Shown: positions 1,192 to 21,158 of the stretch, in pieces
Numbering within the stretch: position 1 is the first letter of the stretch
Layout of the letters: each line of letters starts with the position of its first letter
DNA from: an uncultured Gammaproteobacteria bacterium
GTDB lineage: Bacteria; Patescibacteriota; Microgenomatia; Levybacterales; GWA1-39-11
Length of the DNA stretch: 64,000 nucleotides
Direction of reading: 5' to 3'
Assembly: GCA_964409875.1 (NCBI GenBank)
Contig: CAYPEN010000002.1
Location: 274,630-338,629, forward strand
Made by a program: the position numbers and the translations under genes
Notes under the pieces: generated by a model
Database searches by the model: none
What the model was told of the DNA's origin: nothing
The model's input: the letters and a program-made list of their open reading frames with translations, nothing else

Positions 1192-1746
1192 ATGAGCATA
1201 TACACAAGAAAAGGCGATAAAGGGAGCACTTCTTTAGGAAGCGGTGTACGCGTGTCAAAGGACGACGTACGGGTCGAGGCCTATGGAACTGTGGATGAGT
1301 TGAATGCAGTTCTTGGCGTCGCAGGTTCGGAGCTCGTGCACATAAAAGAGGGATACTCCAAGTATTTATTGGAAATTATCCATCAGGTGCAAGACGATCT
1401 GTTTTGCATCGGCTCTTATTTGTCAAACCCGGCAAACGCAAATCTTGTCGAATTGTTGCCGCAACGGACAACTGTTTTTGAGAGATACATCGATGAAATG
1501 ACAGAAAAAATGCCCGAGCTTTCCAACTTTATACTTCCGGGAGGCGGAAAGGCAGGAGCATTCTTGCAGCTTGCAAGAACCGTAAGCAGGCGTGCTGAAA
1601 GAAGACTTGTTTCGCTTTTGAAAAAAGCAAAGATAAATGAGGGAGTGGTAATGTATATCAACCGGCTTTCCGACCTGCTTTTTACCATGAGCAGGTTCTC
1701 AAACCACAACGAAAAACAAAGCGAGACGATTTGGAAACGAAGATAG
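1192..1746 (+). CDS. pduO: ATP:cob(I)alamin adenosyltransferase, PduO type
   Basis: N-terminal MSIYTRKGDKGSTSLGSG...EAYGTVDELNAVLG matches the PduO/MMAB-family signature (YTRTGDxGxTSL, GxxDELN). Its position next to the AdoCbl-dependent RNR fits. Confidence 0.85.
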   Translation: MSIYTRKGDKGSTSLGSGVRVSKDDVRVEAYGTVDELNAVLGVAGSELVHIKEGYSKYLLEIIHQVQDDLFCIGSYLSNPANANLVELLPQRTTVFERYIDEMTEKMPELSNFILPGGGKAGAFLQLARTVSRRAERRLVSLLKKAKINEGVVMYINRLSDLLFTMSRFSNHNEKQSETIWKRR

Positions 1747-1749
1747 CCA

Positions 1750-1852
1750 TGGGTGAAGTGGGGTGGAAGTCCCTCTCTGTGCCGCAACTGTGAATCCTGA
1801 GCTCGTCGAAGGATAAGTCAGAACCCCGGAAGTCTTTTCGAGCAAAAAGCAT
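1750..1852 (+). ncRNA. Candidate cobalamin riboswitch-like leader upstream of ORF 1853..2926
   Basis: Contains GGTGGAAGTCC (consensus GGUGnAAnUCC), GCCGCAACTGTG (consensus CCGCaACUGUa) and AAGTCAGAACCCCGG (B12-box-like rAGYCMGgAgaCCkGCc) in the canonical order. A related compact version (GGAATTCC...GCCGCAACTGTATAGTCAGAAAAC) lies at 1065-1108. The call rests on remembered consensus and is not computed. Confidence 0.35.
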
Positions 1853-3715: not shown

Positions 3716-4104
3716 GGGGATGAATTGAATCGACAGGAACTGTACTTTAAAAACTGCAAGCCGGCAATGACTCAAAGCCGTAAAAAAGGGTCAAAAATAC
3801 ATGCTAACAATACTGTTAGCGGTATAAAGCGGTTCTTCGCGGATCGCATTCCGGATGTAAATCCGGGATTAGGTTACGCGGCATTCGCCTAATACCTGTT
3901 TGCTTCCATTCCGCCTCAAGCTCGGGGAAGCAGGCATCAACCAGCTTGAAAACTTAACGGGGCTGACCGAACCGTTTCGCAAAAGGTCTTAGCTGTTTCA
4001 TTCTGCGTTTGGGAGGTCAGAAACGGCAAAATATATCTCAAACTACGCTTGTAGATGTTTTTGAATATGGTTTTTGGACGCCGGTTCGTTACCGGCCATC
4101 TCCA
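3716..4104 (+). ncRNA. ssrA: tmRNA (SsrA)
   Basis: The 5' end GGGGATGAATTGAATCGACAGG parallels E. coli GGGGCUGAUUCUGGAUUCGACGGG. The 3' end GGACGCCGGTTCGTTACCGGC-CATCTCC-A parallels GGACGCGGGUUCAACUCCCGC-CAGCUCC-A, with the acceptor strand complementary to the 5' GGGGATG including a G3-U pair. An internal tag reading frame ends ...PGLGYAAFA followed by TAA at 3890-3892. Confidence 0.8.
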
Positions 4105-5605
4105 CACCAGTGTTTTTTGAAGTTGCTAAATTACCGATTAGCTTGACAGGATAGGCCAAACTTGCGGTTCCAAAGCCATTCTTGTAGTCATATTCAACTT
4201 TTCCGTTAAAATAAGCGTATAGAACAGCTTTCTTATCGTTCACATTTTCACTTTGCCACATATCAATAGGATTTTTTAGCAGTGAAAATAGTTTTTCCGT
4301 AGCGGTTCCAAATCTTTCGTCATTGTAGGGGTTGGATATTAACTCCATATCAATAGACCTAATCTCTTGAGAGTATTTTTCAATTTCGTTTTCATAAACC
4401 TTAATTAAATCTTCACTTGAGGCTTTAGTTATTCGTTCAAGTAGACTTGAAACTTTTGCTTCTAATTCAACTTTTCTATTTAAGTAAAGTTGTCTAATCT
4501 CCTCGTAGCTATTTTTCTTTAAGTTCCATGCTTCTGTTAACACTAATTTTGCAACGTCTAAAATCGTGTTATCTAACCTAACCTTGTATAATAATGCTTC
4601 GAATTGGTCCTCCATGCTTTTCCTTCCTATAACCTTATACTTGTACTTGCAATACTTATTGATACAGAAATAATTGGGATATCTACGACCATGACGACCA
4701 GTGTTCCAAGATGCTGTAAGAGGCTTATTGCACGAAACACAGATAATATGAGTTCGTAATGGAAAATCACTTGAATAGTCGTGTCTTGTCCATTTTTTCC
4801 CTTTTGACCTTATTCTTTGTTGGACTTTTTCGTAGGTTTCAATTGTTATAATGCCTTCATGATGACCTTTTCGCCTCTCTACACTCCATTTAGGGTACTC
4901 CACGTAGCCTGTATATAGTATTTGCCTAAGTATTCGCTGGGTACCGCTTAATGAAAGTTTTTTAGTTATACCATGCTCTTTATATTTGTTGAGAATAAAT
5001 CTCTGAACATCTTCCTGAGTGTTCAGAATACCCACGGCGTAATTTTCTAATGCAGTTTTAATGATAGAAGCGTATGGTTCGACGGGTTTTAATAGCTTCC
5101 CGTGGATAGGGTCTTTAACAGCTGAGAGGCCCAGGGGTGGAAAAAAGGCCCAGTAGCCCTTCTCTAATCGTGCTTTTTGCTTCTGAATAACCTGTCTTCT
5201 ATTGGATTTACGTTGATACTGATTGCTAACGGCTAACATTAGCTCAGCCATTTCGCTCTCATCACTTTCTTCAAAGTTGAAGTTCAAACATTCTAGTCTT
5301 ACCCCTCTAGAGGAAAACTCCGCCCTAAGTTGGATATGAACTTTAACGTCTCTTGCAAACCGTGATAAATCATCAAATATTATTACGTATTCTTCTAATG
5401 TATGGTTATCGATATATTGGATAAGTTGCTTCATGGCAGGCCTTTCAAATAAACCACCGCTTATACCGTCATCAGGAAATACTGCTTCTACGGGATAACC
5501 TTTTTGGACTGCATGAACCCTGCATCTTTGCTCTTGGGAGCTCAAACCATTACCTTCCTTAACCTGCCTCTGACTAGAAACCCTACAATAGATAAGTGCC
5601 TTCAT
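4043..5605 (-). CDS. Large serine recombinase (serine integrase type)
   Basis: N-terminal resolvase catalytic domain (LIYCRVSSQRQ with the Ser nucleophile), a recombinase domain, a Cys-rich zinc ribbon (ICVSCNKPL...CINKYCKYK) and a C-terminal coiled coil. The last roughly 20 codons overlap the tmRNA T-arm and acceptor. Confidence 0.9.
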   Translation of the reverse strand: MKALIYCRVSSQRQVKEGNGLSSQEQRCRVHAVQKGYPVEAVFPDDGISGGLFERPAMKQLIQYIDNHTLEEYVIIFDDLSRFARDVKVHIQLRAEFSSRGVRLECLNFNFEESDESEMAELMLAVSNQYQRKSNRRQVIQKQKARLEKGYWAFFPPLGLSAVKDPIHGKLLKPVEPYASIIKTALENYAVGILNTQEDVQRFILNKYKEHGITKKLSLSGTQRILRQILYTGYVEYPKWSVERRKGHHEGIITIETYEKVQQRIRSKGKKWTRHDYSSDFPLRTHIICVSCNKPLTASWNTGRHGRRYPNYFCINKYCKYKYKVIGRKSMEDQFEALLYKVRLDNTILDVAKLVLTEAWNLKKNSYEEIRQLYLNRKVELEAKVSSLLERITKASSEDLIKVYENEIEKYSQEIRSIDMELISNPYNDERFGTATEKLFSLLKNPIDMWQSENVNDKKAVLYAYFNGKVEYDYKNGFGTASLAYPVKLIGNLATSKNTGVEMAGNEPASKNHIQKHLQA

Positions 5606-15838: not shown

Positions 15839-15900
15839 TGGGCATGTAGCTCAGGGAATGCTCTTTTTGCTCAAGCAAAAAGTAGAGCGCATTCTTACGT
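15839..15900 (+). pseudogene. Degenerate 5'-half copy of tRNA-Ile with a roughly 27-nt hairpin insertion in the D-loop
   Basis: gggcatgtagctcaggg + aatgctctttttgctcaagcaaaaag + tagagcgcattctta matches the first 37 nt of the downstream tRNA but has no T-arm or acceptor 3' strand. Confidence 0.6.
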
Positions 15901-15951
15901 TAAAAAAAGACTTGAAAACCGCATACAGAACTTAAATTAGTTTATGTTATT

Positions 15952-16023
15952 CGGGCATGTAGCTCAGGGGTAGAGCGCCATTCTTATAAAATGGATGTCC
16001 TTGGTTCGATTCCAAGCATGCCC
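15952..16023 (+). tRNA. tRNA-Ile, anticodon TAT (UAU)
   Basis: A manual cloverleaf fold gives acceptor gggcatg/catgccc, D-stem gctc/gagc, anticodon stem ccatt/aatgg with loop cttataa, and T-stem cttgg/ccaag with loop ttcgatt. No CCA is encoded. Confidence 0.75.
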
Positions 16024-16071
16024 ACAAAAGCCCCACAGCCAACTTCATGATTGTCTTTTTTTAACGAGCTA

Positions 16072-16110
16072 AAAATGGATGTCTTGGGTATCGATTCCAA
16101 GGATGCCCAC
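16072..16110 (+). repeat. Degenerate direct copy of the tRNA-Ile 3' half (anticodon-stem 3' strand through acceptor)
   Basis: aaaatggatgtcttgggtatcgattccaaggatgcccac matches aaaatggatgtccttggttcgattccaagcatgcccac of the tRNA 47 nt upstream. It abuts the stop of the T4CP-like gene. Confidence 0.65.
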
Positions 16111-16117
16111 CGACAAA

Positions 16118-18750: not shown

Positions 18751-18898
18751 ACGTATTTATAATACCATAGTAGCAATCTACCCACAATTTCGTACGCCTC
18801 ATAAATCCATCTCAAGACGCTTCCTTTTGAGCTTAAGTTTGATATAATGATACAACTTTGTAAGGGGCAGGTAGGGAAGCGGTATGGTGAAAATGGTT

Positions 18899-19091
18899 GG
18901 GAGGAGTCGCATGAAATCTCTTTGAGATGTTCTACGACTCTTAGATAAGAAATAAAGGAGGAGTCGCATGAGAAATCTCTTTGAGATGTTCTACGACTCT
19001 TAGATAAGAAACCAAGGAGGAGTCGCATAAGAACCTGGCATAAGACCAGAACCTTGTACGATCCTATTCGTTACACTCGGAGGAGTCGCAT
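18899..19091 (+). repeat. Array of four copies of GGAGGAGTCGCAT (the tRNA-Ser-GCT 5' end) at 58/58/63-nt spacing; the fourth copy is the start of the tRNA itself
   Basis: Copies start at about 18899, 18957, 19015 and 19079. Spacers 1 and 2 are near-identical (gaaatctctttgagatgttctacgactcttagataagaaa); spacer 3 is unrelated. Confidence 0.8.
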
Positions 19092-19169
19092 AGTTGGCCC
19101 ATTGCGGGGGGTTGCTAACCCCCTGAGCTCTTAAACAAGCTCGCGCAGGTTCGAATCCTGTCTCCTCCG
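19079..19169 (+). tRNA. tRNA-Ser, anticodon GCT (type II, long variable arm)
   Basis: Acceptor ggaggag/ctcctcc, 3-bp D-stem gca/tgc, anticodon stem ggggg/ccccc with loop ttgctaa, a roughly 21-nt variable arm, T-stem gcagg/cctgt with loop ttcgaat, discriminator g. Confidence 0.8.
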
Positions 19170-19214
19170 CATGAGTTTGAGTCGACAGGATTTGCTGTTT
19201 ATCAACAGAACGTC

Positions 19215-19231
19215 TCCTGTCTCCTCCGCAC
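19215..19231 (+). repeat. Direct copy of the tRNA-Ser(GCT) 3' end (tcctgtctcctccgca), about 50 nt downstream of the tRNA
   Basis: tctcctgtctcctccgca at 19214-19231 matches atcctgtctcctccgca at 19155-19171. Confidence 0.7.
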
Positions 19232-19233
19232 GC

Positions 19234-20835
19234 ATGAAGCGGATATTCCTACAGACATACGCATTCTTACTTTTCATTTTTCTTGTAGCTATTTTTTTCC
19301 GTCCGGTAACTGCAATCAATGACGATTTGGGGCGGCACATCCTTCTGGGGAATATAATACTTGCCAGTCACGCTGTCCCCTCCATAAATCTCTTGTCGTA
19401 CACGTTCTCCGGTTTTTCATTTATCAATACGACTTGGTTATACGAAGTGATTTCCGCACTTATTGTAAAAAGTTTTGGATTGAATGGCTTGCTTTTTGTA
19501 AGCTGCATTGCTGCAGTAAGCGCTTGTATGTATCAATTTCGTTATGTTGCTTCCCGTTTTCCGAAAATCTCTGTTGTTGCTATATCTACTCTTTTCTTGT
19601 TGCTTTTAAGTTTTCGTACGGACGTGCGTCCTGAAATCTTTAGCATGCTTTTTCTGTCGGTATTTACTGTTTCACTTTATCGGTATTTCGAAAAACCCAC
19701 ACGAAAAATTTTTTTTCTCATTCCCCTCGAAGCATTATGGGTAAATATGCATATTTATTTTTTTGCAGGTCCCCTTATTCTTGCAGTATTTATAATAGGA
19801 AGCTTTGATGGGAAATTGACGAAAAAAACAAAAGAACTGTTGATGGTTTTTGCCGGTGTTATAGCAATAACCCTTCTTAATCCAAATGGCATCAAGGGAG
19901 CTCTGTTTCCGCTGGTCGTTCTTCAGAATTATGGATTTCCCGTTGTTGAGAACCAAACAATTTTTACACTTTTTCGGATATATCAAAATCCTGCAATTTT
20001 CCTTCCATTAATAAGTATATTTTTGGTGGTGTTATTGATGTTTTTGGGAAGAACGAATGTGACAAGAAGGGACGTACTGCTTGTCACATGCTTTGGAATG
20101 CTTGCTCTTCTCAATTTTAGAAACGTCCTTCTTTTTATATTTACAACCTTTATATTTTCAGTTTCCCAACTGGATTTCGTTTTAAAAATATATAAAAAGC
20201 GAATTAAAAAATTCCCCCGAAATTCTTTTATAAGTCTGTACCCTTTAAGCCTCTTTTTTGTCGTGGTTTTAATTCTAAAATCCGTCAGTACTCATGGAGT
20301 TGGTTTTGGGGTGGTTGAGTACGGAAGGGAGAGTGTAAATTTTTTGCTGCAAAATAAAATTTCCGGTCCGATATATAACGATTTTAATATTGGAGGGTAT
20401 CTCTCATCCAGAATGTATCCGCAAAAAGTATTTGTAGACAATAGACCTGAAGCCTATCCAAAGAAATTTTTTACAGACTTTTATTTGCCGATGCAGAAAA
20501 ACCCGAAACTTTTTGAAACGTTGGATAGCAAATATAACTTCAATGCGATTATTGTTTCCCACTATGATGGGACAAATTACCCAAATCCATTGCTTCGGTA
20601 TTTTGCTCAAAACCCGCAATTTTCAATAGTATATTTAGACGGTTACGCAATGGTTTTGGTGAGAAATTCTCCAGACAACAAACAATTCATCGATAAACAT
20701 CAAATAAGAAAGGATACGTTGAATTTCAGCACTATAGTCGACCGCCAAGCCCTGCTTCGGTATCTATTGTTTTTAGAAAAAGAAGGCTGGTCAGATAAAG
20801 AAGAGCAGGTATTAAAACAGCTGGAAAACATGTAA
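19234..20835 (+). CDS. Polytopic membrane protein, possibly a GT-C-type glycosyltransferase
   Basis: At least 10 hydrophobic helices. A DD motif (AINDDLGRH) sits in the first extracytoplasmic loop, as in GT-C enzymes. A C-terminal soluble domain follows. The start was moved to the internal ATG at 19234 to clear the tRNA. Confidence 0.45.
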   Translation: MKRIFLQTYAFLLFIFLVAIFFRPVTAINDDLGRHILLGNIILASHAVPSINLLSYTFSGFSFINTTWLYEVISALIVKSFGLNGLLFVSCIAAVSACMYQFRYVASRFPKISVVAISTLFLLLLSFRTDVRPEIFSMLFLSVFTVSLYRYFEKPTRKIFFLIPLEALWVNMHIYFFAGPLILAVFIIGSFDGKLTKKTKELLMVFAGVIAITLLNPNGIKGALFPLVVLQNYGFPVVENQTIFTLFRIYQNPAIFLPLISIFLVVLLMFLGRTNVTRRDVLLVTCFGMLALLNFRNVLLFIFTTFIFSVSQLDFVLKIYKKRIKKFPRNSFISLYPLSLFFVVVLILKSVSTHGVGFGVVEYGRESVNFLLQNKISGPIYNDFNIGGYLSSRMYPQKVFVDNRPEAYPKKFFTDFYLPMQKNPKLFETLDSKYNFNAIIVSHYDGTNYPNPLLRYFAQNPQFSIVYLDGYAMVLVRNSPDNKQFIDKHQIRKDTLNFSTIVDRQALLRYLLFLEKEGWSDKEEQVLKQLENM

Positions 20836-20885
20836 TTCGCTTCAATAAACTCCCTCGGAATGATATAATCGTTAGACCAAATTAT

Positions 20886-21027
20886 TAGGAGAGGTCGCAT
20901 GAAATTTAGCAATGCTAAATATTCTCCGACCTGTTGTGATAAAAAATTTAGGAGAGGTCGCATAACAACCTTGCTTCGCAAGAACGTTGTCCGACTCTTC
21001 TTATTGCATTAGGAGAGGTCGCATAGT
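20886..21027 (+). repeat. Array of three copies of TTAGGAGAGGTCGCAT (the tRNA-Ser-TGA 5' end) at 64/60-nt spacing; the third copy is the start of the tRNA
   Basis: Copies lie at about 20886, 20950 and 21010. The spacers differ but share cgactctt with the spacers of the other tRNA-Ser array. Confidence 0.8.
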
Positions 21028-21094
21028 GGTCGAGTGCAGCGGTCTTGAAAACCGCCAAGCGAAAGCTTCGAGGGTTCGAATCCCTCCCTCTCCG
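21012..21094 (+). tRNA. tRNA-Ser, anticodon TGA (type II)
   Basis: Acceptor ggagagg/cctctcc, D-stem gca/tgc, anticodon stem gcggt/accgc with loop cttgaaa, long variable arm, T-stem gaggg/ccctc with loop ttcgaat, discriminator g. Confidence 0.8.
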
Positions 21095-21158
21095 CACCTT
21101 CATATTCCCTCCCGTCATTCCTCTTGTGTTTTTCCCATTTTTCTTTTACAGTTGATAT

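Follow-up and report, generated by a model that had tools for sequence, protein, structure and literature searches.

Two tRNA-Ser genes of the window, by which we mean the whole stretch of 64,000 nucleotides that was analysed, are each preceded by a short array of repeat units, and every unit starts with an exact copy of the 5' end of the adjoining tRNA. With a confidence that is about evenly balanced, we regard the arrays as putative stacks of hairpin modules that derive from tRNA and belong to the 5' external transcribed spacer of tRNA-Ser. The modules would probably act in cis, on the folding of the pre-tRNA and on its processing by RNase P. The close rival to this reading is a function-free duplication whose products neutralise themselves.

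Anatomy of the arrays and of their modules

The initial annotation had reported a periodic 13-mer upstream of tRNA-Ser(GCU), and its four copies are confirmed at their exact positions. The 13-mer GGAGGAGTCGCAT lies on the + strand at 18900-18912, 18957-18969, 19016-19028 and 19079-19091, with start-to-start distances of 57, 59 and 63 nt, and the fourth copy (19079) is the +1 of the tRNA. Spacers 1 and 2 are indeed near-identical (95% identity over 59 nt), and spacer 3 is unlike both. The same phenomenon, as had also been pointed out, occurs at the second tRNA-Ser gene, where GGAGAGGTCGCAT is found at 20888, 20951 and 21012 (array 2) and the last of these three copies opens tRNA-Ser(UGA). Coincidence had been argued against, and the counts agree: with up to two mismatches, the window holds eight matches for 0.71 expected, a number reached in none of 100 shuffles. 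In both arrays, the units are arranged head-to-tail in the orientation of the tRNA and are contiguous with it.

Each unit (57-63 nt) is composed of a segment X, a variable stem-loop, a segment X' and a single-stranded tail of 10-14 nt. X is an exact copy of tRNA nt 1-13/14, i.e. the acceptor 5' strand, nt 8-9 and the D-stem 5' strand. X' is the strand complementary to X and resembles the acceptor 3' strand. The features discussed here are as follows.

18840-18848, + strand: extended -10 promoter-like motif TGATATAAT upstream of array 1, as read from the sequence
18900-18956, + strand: leader module 1 (type ii) of array 1, with X copy at 18900-18912, stem-loop, X' CGACTCTT at 18935-18942 and A-rich tail
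18957-19015, + strand: leader module 2 (type ii) of array 1, with X copy at 18957-18969 and X' at 18994-19001; recent tandem duplicate of module 1
19016-19078, + strand: leader module 3 (type i) of array 1, with X copy at 19016-19028, X' CGATCCT at 19059-19065 and tail TCGTTACACTC
19079-19170, + strand: tRNA-Ser(GCU), found by ARAGORN and by the Rfam tRNA model (51 bits), which opens with the repeated 13-mer
19171-19233, + strand: trailer module, with Y' GAGTCGACAGGATT at 19179-19192 and, at 19215-19230, its pairing partner TCCTGTCTCCTCCGCA, which copies the tRNA 3' end
20861-20869, + strand: putative extended -10 promoter-like motif TGATATAAT upstream of array 2, read in the same manner
20888-20950, + strand: module 1 (type ii) of array 2, homologous to modules 1 and 2 of array 1
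20951-21011, + strand: module 2 (type i) of array 2, homologous to module 3 of array 1
21012-21095, + strand: tRNA-Ser(UGA), found by ARAGORN and by the Rfam tRNA model; its first 13 nt are GGAGAGGTCGCAT

The repetition of the tRNA 3' end downstream of tRNA-Ser(GCU) had escaped the initial annotation, as had the self-copies around tRNA-Ile. The tRNA-Ile gene of the same window is also flanked by copies of itself: it is located within a split self-copy with 14-bp inverted repeats at the borders.

A hairpin is predicted in every unit, with nt 1-10 of X as its 5' strand. By nearest-neighbour folding, which leaves aside tRNA tertiary structure and base modifications, the hairpin of module 1 in array 1 reaches -15.5 kcal/mol (z -2.55), with nt 3-10 of X paired to X', and module 2 has the same predicted hairpin; the values for array 2 are -17.1 kcal/mol (z -3.73) for module 1 and -19.2 kcal/mol (z -3.62) for module 2. 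In module 3 of array 1, folding yields an AUAAG/CUUGU stem, an AAC/AAC internal loop and a distal stem-loop. The initial annotation did not notice these hairpins, in which the 13-mer supplies the 5' strand and the closing complement lies inside what had been described as a spacer. The sequence of X follows that of its own tRNA (GGAGGAG versus GGAGAGG in the window, and GGAAGGG at the related locus L010), and a GGAGAG:CUCUCC pairing of X is found in many modules. The complementarity between X and X' exceeds that of shuffles in 80 distinct tRNA-Ser units (Wilcoxon p = 8e-7) and in 81 tRNA-Arg units (p = 5.5e-9). The module hairpins are nearly perfect palindromes, and their sense and antisense folding energies are equal. 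The strand asymmetry by which an RNA hairpin can be told from a DNA hairpin amounts to 44 G.U against 18 A.C pairs, or to 23 against 18 after removal of one invariant pair.

The TGATATAAT motif is present upstream of both arrays and also 5' of tRNA-Ile, and as a promoter-like sequence it may drive array transcription. A sigma-70 scan revealed no + strand promoter or terminator inside the arrays, and no terminator-like site was found on the + strand between 18500 and 21400. Of 63 cases among related loci, 19 have an extended -10 element 5' of the first module and none has one within a module; the element mostly ends 9-12 nt 5' of X. In the window, the distance from the -10 end to the first X is 51 nt for array 1 and 18 nt for array 2, so that a promoter placed at X with a transcription start at +1 is unsupported there.

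Distribution and conservation among relatives

The initial annotation had taken absence from related genomes, together with a single recent tandem duplication, as the outcome that would speak against its observation; the architecture was instead encountered in many genomes, both related and unrelated, and similar modules are widespread among candidate-phyla bacteria. In the fetched loci, which come almost entirely from Patescibacteria, 67 of 94 tRNA-Ser genes have an upstream copy, and the tRNA-Ser modules span all four isoacceptors and many lineages of that group. Analogous modules precede tRNA-Arg and tRNA-Ile genes, those of tRNA-Arg in at least 120 metagenome loci. The tRNA-Ser set was gathered with a pattern requiring two exact 13-mers, which inflates the apparent conservation of X in it. 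In the tRNA-Arg set, where positions 6-14 alone were imposed, positions 1-5 of the copy are 81-93% identical to the tRNA; identity drops to 29-61% at positions -1 to -10 and is around 30% beyond position 16.

The number and type of units turn over fast between close relatives. At tRNA-Ser(GCU), the related locus L071 has no module, L089 has one and the window has three; the modules are dispensable and unstable. The trailer module of this gene is kept in the closest relative, L089. Two loci, L014 and L085, harbour arrays of three to four identical units, and some of the upstream units at L012, L072 and L074 are decayed 5' parts of tRNA. Type i modules are located at differing isoacceptors in differing lineages. 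Their UAAG..CUUG stem and the tail TCGTTNCACTC are also found 5' of a tRNA-Ile (L076) and of a tRNA-Arg (L081), with X and X' adapted to the local tRNA in both cases, and the tail motif occurs once in reverse orientation beside a tRNA (L022).

No match to the architecture was obtained in 2.9 million viral contigs, and a phage origin was set aside on that count. In the window and 17 related loci, only tRNA and tmRNA were matched by Rfam, and our text searches of the literature did not find natural leader modules of this kind. The genome scan also returned approximately 30 loci from Bacteroidota and others that were discarded as unrelated palindromic tandem repeats, CGACCYC-GGAGRGGTCG, without tRNA; this by-catch includes L006, L009, L016, L017, L020, L024, L033, L045 and L055, as well as L061, L062, L078, L080, L083, L088, L091 and L093.

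A covariance model of the type i module, R1, gave its best match at module 2 of array 2 (71 bits) and a score of 63.2 bits (E 9e-17) at module 3 of array 1; the 3'-side structure string of R1 is off by two columns, and its matches rest mainly on sequence. In the roughly 490 kb searched, all 22 strong matches adjoin a tRNA-Ser 5' 13-mer, one of them a dead 5' half (L042), and no strong copy was detected away from tRNA-Ser genes. The model also weakly matches whole tRNA-Ser genes. In the 22 type i modules, 87.2% of cells are paired, compared with 38-47% when the partners are slid. Two-sided changes affect 9 pairs and 33 cells, a level reached by none of 500 shuffles; these were counted with the correct structure, but on the alignment fitted to the offset R1. 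One pair switches between G-C and C-G, and distal stems are wholly replaced. Two 85-nt modules of one genome similarly carry compensatory stems, GTACAC/GTGTAG and GTGAGC/GCTCAG. The unpaired AAC/AAC loop is identical in 13 of 16 type i rows; of the other three, two have AAU/AAU and the third a variant. Both the AAC/AAC loop and the tail TCGTTNCACTC are constant across Levybacteria, Daviesbacteria, Berkelbacteria and other lineages. Conservation at such unpaired positions suggests that some factor additionally recognises the modules, at least those of type i.

Possible origin and mechanism, and alternative explanations

How might such arrays have arisen? The first module may stem from a partial duplication or an internal deletion of a tRNA copy, and slippage between X copies may have allowed tandem growth, as in units 1 and 2. 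Templated recombination could then transfer modules among tRNA-Ser paralogues, with X and the conserved tRNA 5' end as the sole homology. Across the tRNA-Ser loci of one genome, module similarity begins at nt 1 of X, plus or minus 1-3 nt upstream. The initial annotation had evoked a recombinase targeting tRNA 5' ends; this is not borne out, with no recombinase, integrase or cas gene within approximately 5 kb. The homology between tRNA-Ser paralogues starts at +1, which would account for the sharp boundary at this position more simply than a recombinase. The array does lie in the presumed transcribed leader, as had been suggested, and the other two ideas of the initial annotation, a decoy or processing site for RNase P and a regulatory leader, may yet apply.

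As for the mechanism, transcription would begin 5' of the first X, and the emerging X and X' would form a local hairpin that caps the 5' end. In this hairpin the two strands would neutralise each other, as an unpaired X would seize the 3' acceptor strand of the tRNA and an unpaired X' would trap its true 5' strand. The tRNA would fold next, and RNase P cleavage at the true +1 would remove the modules. Formally, this would be an attenuator-like competition between four strands, with 1:2 and 3:4 opposed to 2:3 and 1:4, helix 3:4 being the acceptor stem, and such a competition might determine or gate how much mature tRNA is made. By prediction, there are two near-isoenergetic states. At predicted equilibrium, X takes the 3' acceptor strand in 39 of 61 module-plus-tRNA constructs; without X, the prediction for 10 of the 61, the UGA gene of the window among them, is that X' traps the true 5' strand. 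Before the 3' strand exists, X is predicted to stay in its own hairpin in no more than about half of the modules; the 'neutralising' design is therefore not obviously optimised. It is tempting to speculate that the leader is an RNA switch that gates tRNA maturation, although we consider this unlikely. A trans factor would bind or remove X and thereby free X', diverting the precursor from RNase P; candidates include nucleases (a 5' exonuclease or RNase III), a protein recognising the conserved AAC/AAC loop and, in tRNA-Ser leaders, a 30S subunit bound to the Shine-Dalgarno-like GGAGG. The freed X' would sequester the true 5' strand, or else X would capture the 3' strand, and competition for the acceptor-stem strands would afford post-transcriptional control of tRNA supply.

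Alternatively, the arrays may be by-products without function, a tentative explanation that we take as quite possible. Highly transcribed tRNA genes would repeatedly undergo partial tandem duplication of the tRNA ends, through slippage, unequal crossing-over or template switching, and the copies would spread between paralogues by gene conversion through X. Since an unpaired copy would misfold the tRNA, only versions in which X is paired with X' would survive, and X would look conserved because drifted copies escape recognition or propagation. The rapid turnover among close relatives, the arrays of three to four identical units (L014, L085), the orthologue devoid of modules (L071) and the upstream copies that are obviously decaying tRNA pieces all speak for this explanation, as do the start of paralogue sharing at nt 1 of X, within 1-3 nt, and the prediction that at equilibrium the copy is harmful rather than helpful. 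The E. coli tyrT repeats, which have the same anatomy on the 3' side and have long been attributed to unequal recombination, also argue for it. Against it stands the constancy, in several lineages, of the AAC/AAC loops and the TCGTTNCACTC tail despite wholly replaced distal stems. The tail and UAAG..CUUG stem at tRNA-Ile (L076) and tRNA-Arg (L081) are a further difficulty: recombination through X cannot yield such modules, with X and X' adapted to those tRNAs. Moreover, a homology of 13 nt is short for RecA-driven conversion.

Three other explanations are less likely. The modules could be small non-autonomous mobile DNA elements with X and X' as subterminal inverted repeats, mobilised in trans by a transposase or recombinase and inserted at or beside the tRNA 5' end or in the D-loop, with restoration of the 5' part of the tRNA. 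X and X' do resemble inverted repeats, although X' lies 10-14 nt from the unit end and X is the target itself; the boundaries are sharp, at tRNA +1 and at nt 13-16 where the D-loop starts; the modules behave as cassettes, near-identical at two loci of one genome (L011, L075); and the split self-copy around tRNA-Ile with its 14-bp inverted repeats and the single reversed tail motif next to a tRNA (L022) also fit. We nevertheless hold this to be distinctly improbable: there is no transposase or integrase near the arrays, no match among the 2.9 million viral contigs and no strong covariance model copy off tRNA-Ser genes in the approximately 490 kb searched, and each tRNA would need a separate X and X'. 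The module bodies, of 45-50 nt, are smaller than the known MITEs. The proposal that each repeat forms a GGAGG-N6-ATG pseudo-start holds for the first two units of array 1 and the first of array 2 and fails elsewhere, the tRNA-proximal units and the tRNAs themselves having ATA in place of ATG. A translational leader, in which this strong Shine-Dalgarno-like GGAGG, 6 nt before ATG, would open a short peptide controlling the tRNA or a downstream gene, is close to refuted. The GGAGG is the tRNA acceptor strand and is paired within the predicted hairpin, the possible peptides (4, 11 and 36 aa) are mutually unrelated, a 2-nt indel changes the frame between the 95% identical units 1 and 2, and the X of the tRNA-Arg and tRNA-Ile analogues is not Shine-Dalgarno-like. 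Leader peptides were rejected; neither they nor the pseudo-start codons are conserved. Finally, short direct repeats at a regular period with partly different spacers evoke a CRISPR-like or other spacer-acquiring array; the initial annotation rightly dismissed CRISPR, and such an array can be taken as refuted for practical purposes. The repeat, of 13-14 nt where CRISPR repeats measure about 23-55 nt, is identical to tRNA nt 1-13/14, and the 'spacers' are structured, homologous across arrays and genomes and complementary to the repeat; there is no Rfam match and no cas gene nearby. A Pfam scan of the six proteins flanking the arrays detected TraG-like, SpoIID and TspO domains or nothing, and no cas domain.

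Comparison with known systems

CRISPR arrays share with the present ones the periodic layout of direct repeats and spacers, and differ from them in repeat length, spacer properties and the presence of cas genes. Partial tRNA copies at att sites are likewise direct repeats of part of a tRNA gene beside the intact gene. Those copies are usually 3' segments, lie kilobases apart and come with an integrase, unlike the 5' segments described here, which are approximately 60 nt apart, form hairpins and have neither integrase nor viral matches. Acceptor-stem minihelices, the model substrates of RNase P, are also hairpins based on the tRNA acceptor stem, but the modules lack an RCCA 3' end, a conserved discriminator and, in their distal loops, any T-loop mimic; T-loop mimicry was discarded after none was seen in the modules inspected.

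Parallels to the proposed mechanism are found among regulatory leaders. In transcription attenuators too, mutually exclusive pairings of four consecutive strands decide the outcome, and in designed RNase P riboswitches a leader structure controls the access of RNase P to the pre-tRNA (PMC7897497, PMC8925977). Unlike attenuators and riboswitches, the modules have no U-tract terminator hairpin, and their helix 3:4 is the tRNA acceptor stem. With no Rfam family match and no conserved leader peptide, no aptamer, ligand or sensor was identified for them, and no natural counterpart of the designed riboswitches was found in our literature searches. If the modules act in cis, they would represent a widespread natural leader RNA structure that competes for the acceptor stem of its own tRNA, a principle so far known only from the designed RNase P riboswitches. 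They would also offer a way into the study of tRNA maturation in Patescibacteria, a group with reportedly diverged RNase P RNAs (PMC8172020).

Should the modules lack a function, they would still reveal a mutational process that recurs at the tRNA genes of bacteria. They would then account for the odd 'repeat arrays' and pseudo-tRNA fragments that are open to miscalling by annotation pipelines, and would connect the old puzzle of the E. coli tyrT repeats with a general pattern in which a terminal copy is accompanied by its complement. The tyrT repeats are the nearest precedent, and the modules appear closer to a mirror image of them than to a new kind of system. The tyrT-tyrV operon (rtT / RttR-tpr) likewise carries exact copies of a tRNA terminus at a fixed period in its spacer or trailer. 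In E. coli K-12, the 3'-terminal 19-mer AATCCTTCCCCCACCACCA occurs six times. Four of these occurrences are additional copies, and three of the four follow a 178-nt period; within its unit, every additional copy is complementary to an upstream GGGGAAGGAT and pairs with it in an acceptor/T-stem-like helix. The annotated sRNA RttR overlaps the first unit. The logic of copy plus complement is the same in both systems. The tyrT repeats lie on the 3' side in units of 178 nt and are confined to one locus in enterobacteria, whereas the present modules lie on the 5' side in units of 57-63 nt, at many tRNA-Ser, tRNA-Arg and tRNA-Ile genes. Being located between promoter and tRNA, they would therefore be able to disturb folding before the tRNA is made.

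Modules in the leaders and trailer of two tRNA-Ser genes

Two tRNA-Ser genes of the window each follow a periodic array of copies of their own 5' end.

Features of the two arrays (window coordinates)
18840 and 20861, plus strand: extended -10 motif TGATATAAT
18900, 18957, 19016 and 19079, plus strand: exact copies of the 13-mer GGAGGAGTCGCAT (array 1)
18935 and 18994: complementary strand CGACTCTT (array 1)
19059: complementary strand CGATCCT (array 1)
19079-19170, plus strand: tRNA-Ser(GCU) (ARAGORN; Rfam tRNA model, 51 bits), beginning with the fourth GGAGGAGTCGCAT
20888, 20951 and 21012: 13-mer GGAGAGGTCGCAT (array 2), the last copy starting tRNA-Ser(UGA)
21012-21095: tRNA-Ser(UGA), terminating array 2

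The initial annotation had described four copies ending at tRNA-Ser(GCU), two near-identical spacers followed by a distinct one, and the same pattern at a second tRNA-Ser gene, all of which we recovered: units 1 and 2 of array 1 share 95% identity across 59 nt, unit 3 being distinct. With up to two mismatches, the 13-mer has eight matches in the window against 0.71 expected, a number that none of 100 shuffles attains.

Each unit alone is predicted to form an imperfect, roughly 45-nt hairpin and then 10-14 nt of A-rich single strand (-15.5 to -19.2 kcal/mol, z -2.0 to -3.7). The 13-mer copy, X, forms the 5' strand, and its nucleotides 1 or 3 to 10 pair in the predicted fold with a complementary strand, X', within the spacer. 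Both strands match their own tRNA, with G5A6 and UC in the GCU array and A5G6 and CU in the UGA array. Corresponding units of the two arrays are homologous: the distal units are of type ii (GCAUGAAAU-stem-AUGUUCU) and the tRNA-proximal units of type i (GCAUAAGAACCU-stem-AGAACCUUGU-CGA-YCUCC-tail). Type iii, a short hairpin with an AUAAG/CUUGU stem, has no distal extension. A simple scan of the plus strand inside both arrays found neither promoter nor terminator; together with the upstream -10 motifs, this suggests that the units are transcribed within the tRNA precursor.

The 3' end of tRNA-Ser(GCU), TCCTGTCTCCTCCGCA, recurs 59 nt downstream, from 19215, and is predicted to pair with a complementary strand between it and the tRNA (19179-19192), which makes a trailer module that mirrors the leader units. 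We are highly confident that the arrays are stacks of hairpin modules derived from the tRNA and placed in the 5' external transcribed spacer, and that the trailer bears a mirror-image counterpart. The trailer hairpin (19171-19236 region) ends 3 nt short of the ATG (19234) of a gene for a 533-aa membrane protein, which has no Shine-Dalgarno sequence, and the same arrangement occurs in L089, a Levyibacteriota MAG. A tRNA-like cut at the trailer copy would leave a nearly leaderless mRNA of this gene.

Distribution and turnover

A one-genome-per-species scan with GGAGRRGTCGCAT-N35-65-GGAGRRGTCGCAT returned 94 loci (L001-L094); in roughly two thirds, a tRNA-Ser gene begins with the final 13-mer. 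The architecture, which the initial annotation had proposed to seek in related genomes, is present at all four isoacceptors (gct, tga, cga, gga) and in records titled as Berkelbacteria, Saccharibacteria, Daviesbacteria, Levybacteria, Peribacteria, Peregrinibacteria, Uhrbacteria, Buchananbacteria and unclassified Patescibacteria, as well as in one Clostridia MAG (L085) and one Ktedonobacteraceae MAG (L090). L089 is the nearest relative, which makes Levybacteria the probable source of the window. Of the 94 tRNA-Ser genes with sufficient flank in the fetched loci, 67 are preceded within 200 nt by a repeat of their initial 12 nt, and 15 are followed by a repeat of their own 3' end; both proportions are biased upward because the pattern demanded two exact 13-mers. 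The leader modules are real, non-random and widespread.

The other loci, about 30 and for the most part Bacteroidota (Saprospiraceae, Bacteroidales, Chitinophagaceae, Myroides), were set aside as unrelated (among them L006, L009, L016, L017, L020, L024, L033, L045, L055, L061, L062, L078, L080, L083, L088, L091, L093). They have tandem repeats of 49-61 nt around the palindrome CGACCYC-GGAGRGGTCG, which lack a neighbouring tRNA and resemble the 13-mer by chance.

Several MAGs labelled 'uncultured Gammaproteobacteria' (L001, L014, L037, L047, L076, L081, L084 and others) combine leader modules with the gene order of the window and of Levybacteria contigs, tRNA-Ile(UAU), tRNA-Ser GCU, tRNA-Ser UGA, so that their labels look wrong. 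In the complete Berkelbacteria genome CP011213.1 (L042; 5100-5700, minus strand), two leader modules precede a dead tRNA-Ser 5' half that has a G+C-rich D-loop insertion and stops in the anticodon loop; about 330 nt beyond stands an intact tRNA-Ser(CGA), whose 5' end differs (GGAAGGG). A hairpin, CCTGCCTG-NNNN-CAGGCAGG, occupies the D-loop of upstream tRNA-Ser 5' pseudo-copies in four different Patescibacteria (L012, 1022-1096; L048, about 1693-1765, minus strand; L072, 1825-1893, minus strand; L059, upstream of 2603). In L022 (1564-1574), the tail motif TCGTTTCACTC stands as its exact reverse complement, GAGTGAAACGA, directly before the +1 of a Saccharibacteria tRNA-Ser, a placement with a chance of roughly 1e-3.

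Unit number and type vary between close relatives at one gene.

Modules at tRNA-Ser(GCU), by type
Window: ii, ii, i
L089: ii
L076: ii, ii, iii
L014: iii, iii, iii
L037: iii
L071: none

Type i modules stand at different isoacceptors in different lineages, and near-identical modules occur at separate tRNA-Ser loci of one genome (L011 and L075). Similarity between loci begins at nucleotide 1 of X (within 1-3 nt), with none further upstream. As homology between tRNA-Ser paralogues starts at the same nucleotide, recombination through X explains both the spread and the sharp boundary: templated repair or recombination, with X and the conserved tRNA 5' end as sole homology, would move modules between paralogues. 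The 5'-end-targeting recombinase suggested initially is therefore not needed, and none is encoded nearby, a Pfam scan of the six flanking proteins giving TraG-like, SpoIID and TspO domains or no match. The architecture was also absent from the 2.9 million viral contigs searched, and we consider a small mobile element improbable, even with near-identical modules at separate loci.

Of 63 related loci, 19 have an extended -10 ahead of the first module, and none has one inside a module. The motif usually stops 9-12 nt short of X, which is also its distance from +1 where a gene lacks modules; modules thus behave like insertions between X and the remainder of the tRNA. Since a recognisable -10 in the tRNA-Ser genes of L001-L094 ends 9-12 nt before +1 or the first X, many Patescibacteria tRNA-Ser primary transcripts would have leaders of only about 2-5 nt.

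Hairpin conservation and extension beyond serine

In a set of 80 distinct units, X is predicted to pair more stably with its own unit body than with shuffled bodies (-10.07 against -8.34 kcal/mol, Wilcoxon p = 8e-7). The effect is heterogeneous: units of the Peribacteria type are degenerate 5' portions of the tRNA, not X:X' hairpins. A type i covariance model has 22 hits at E < 1e-5, all adjoining a tRNA-Ser 5' 13-mer or, in L042, the dead 5' half; it also matches whole tRNA-Ser genes weakly, and the module thus resembles a tRNA-Ser with its interior replaced. In the type i alignment, whose related sequences were fitted to a model and to which the correct structure was applied (that of the model is two columns off), 87.2% of cells are paired against 38-47% with partners slid, and both sides change at 9 pairs (33 cells), values attained by none of 500 shuffles. 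The distal stem is wholly replaced between lineages, one pair of the alignment exchanges G-C for C-G, and two 85-nt modules of one Daviesbacteria contig show compensatory differences in the stem. Of 16 type i rows, 13 share the unpaired AAC/AAC internal loop, two have AAU/AAU and one has a variant, so that some factor may recognise these bases; the tail TCGTTNCACTC recurs directly before +1. The hairpin might in principle form in single-stranded DNA rather than in sense-strand RNA, given that a G.U versus A.C comparison does not separate the two.

The phenomenon extends beyond serine tRNAs. In the window, the tRNA-Ile(UAU) gene lies within a split copy of itself.

Features around tRNA-Ile(UAU)
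15840-15897: upstream 5'-half copy, with a 25-nt hairpin in the D-loop (15857-15881)
15898-15911: CGTTAAAAAAAGAC
15953-16025: tRNA-Ile(UAU), flanked by the two self-copies
16053-16066: GTCTTTTTTTAACG
16070-16111: downstream 3'-half copy

CGTTAAAAAAAGAC and GTCTTTTTTTAACG, beside the half-copies, are exact reverse complements that make a 14-bp helix, which covaries in L047 and L037. The arrangement looks like a tRNA gene inserted in the anticodon loop of an older copy, or like a processing stem. The tRNA-Ile leader of L076 has the UAAG..CUUG stem and TCGTTTCACTC tail of serine modules, with X and X' fitting tRNA-Ile. No flanking self-copies were found at the tmRNA (3716-4105), whose predicted tag peptide, ANNTVSGIKRFFADRIPDVNPGLGYAAFA, is unusually long.

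Analogues at tRNA-Arg occur in L081 and L019 and abound in metagenomes, where CGTAGCTCA-N28-56-GCRCYCGTAGCTCA returned at least 120 loci (L095-L214) with several distinct hairpin families. Among the 122 metagenome matches listed, the second copy starts a called tRNA in 88, 83 of them tRNA-Arg. The pattern fixed copy positions 6-14 only, yet in the listed matches positions 1-5 agree with the tRNA at 81-93%; identity is 29-61% at -1 to -10 and drops to about 30% past nucleotide 16, so that the copy reaches from +1 to where the 5' strand of the D-stem ends. Across 81 tRNA-Arg units, X and X' again show significant complementarity (p = 5.5e-9), and the G+C content of the loci, 29% to 76%, indicates that the architecture probably extends outside Patescibacteria.

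Strand competition, rival readings and known systems

In nearest-neighbour predictions, which leave out tertiary structure, the precursor holds a real competition between four strands, X, X', the true 5' strand and the 3' strand. With the proximal module and the tRNA of either window gene, the upstream X rather than the true 5' strand takes the 3' acceptor strand at minimum energy, whereas the full UGA precursor with both modules folds natively into two hairpins and a cloverleaf. The copy wins at predicted equilibrium in 39 of 61 constructs; with the copy removed, X' traps the true 5' strand in 10 of 61, including the window UGA gene. Prior to synthesis of the 3' strand, the predicted probability that X is in its own hairpin exceeds 0.5 in 31 of 61.

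We favour, at about even chances, a reading in which the X:X' hairpin would form first, during transcription, and cap the 5' end, mutually neutralising the duplicate acceptor and anti-acceptor strands; RNase P would then cut away all leader modules at the true +1, and strand competition could tune or gate tRNA yield. The importance of the modules would be much greater if this competition regulates tRNA maturation. A close rival, plausible though somewhat doubtful in our view, is that they are function-free duplications that persist only when self-paired and are refreshed by recombination; their turnover at one gene speaks for this reading, the conserved internal loop of type i against it. Leader peptides appear very unlikely: the GGAGG-N6-ATG that the initial annotation saw in each repeat exists in some units, but both tRNA-proximal units have ATA, as do the tRNAs, and the possible peptides (4, 11 and 36 aa) are not related to one another, a 2-nt indel having put units 1 and 2, otherwise nearly identical, in different frames. 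CRISPR, already dismissed on first reading, can be practically discounted for these periodic arrays, whose repeats are copies of tRNA 5' ends.

Rfam, searched with the window and 17 related loci, has no family for the leader modules, and a literature text search, with most subscription journals outside its coverage, found no description of natural ones. They would work like attenuators and like designed RNase P riboswitches (PMC7897497, PMC8925977); having no terminator and no known sensor, they fall outside both classes. Their nearest precedent is the E. coli K-12 tyrT-tyrV operon (L215; 1286300-1288000), where the tRNA-Tyr 3'-terminal 19-mer occurs six times, four of them extra copies, three at a 178-nt period in the region annotated rttR/tpr. 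Each extra copy is predicted to pair with an upstream GGGGAAGGAT in its unit, as an acceptor/T-stem-like helix ending in ACCA. Both systems thus share a terminal tRNA copy with its complement in the unit, although the E. coli copies are 3'-sided, spaced at 178 nt and confined to a single locus, whereas the window modules are 5'-sided, come in 60-nt units and form a family. The leader modules belong with the tRNA-derived repeat units in tRNA operon spacers.
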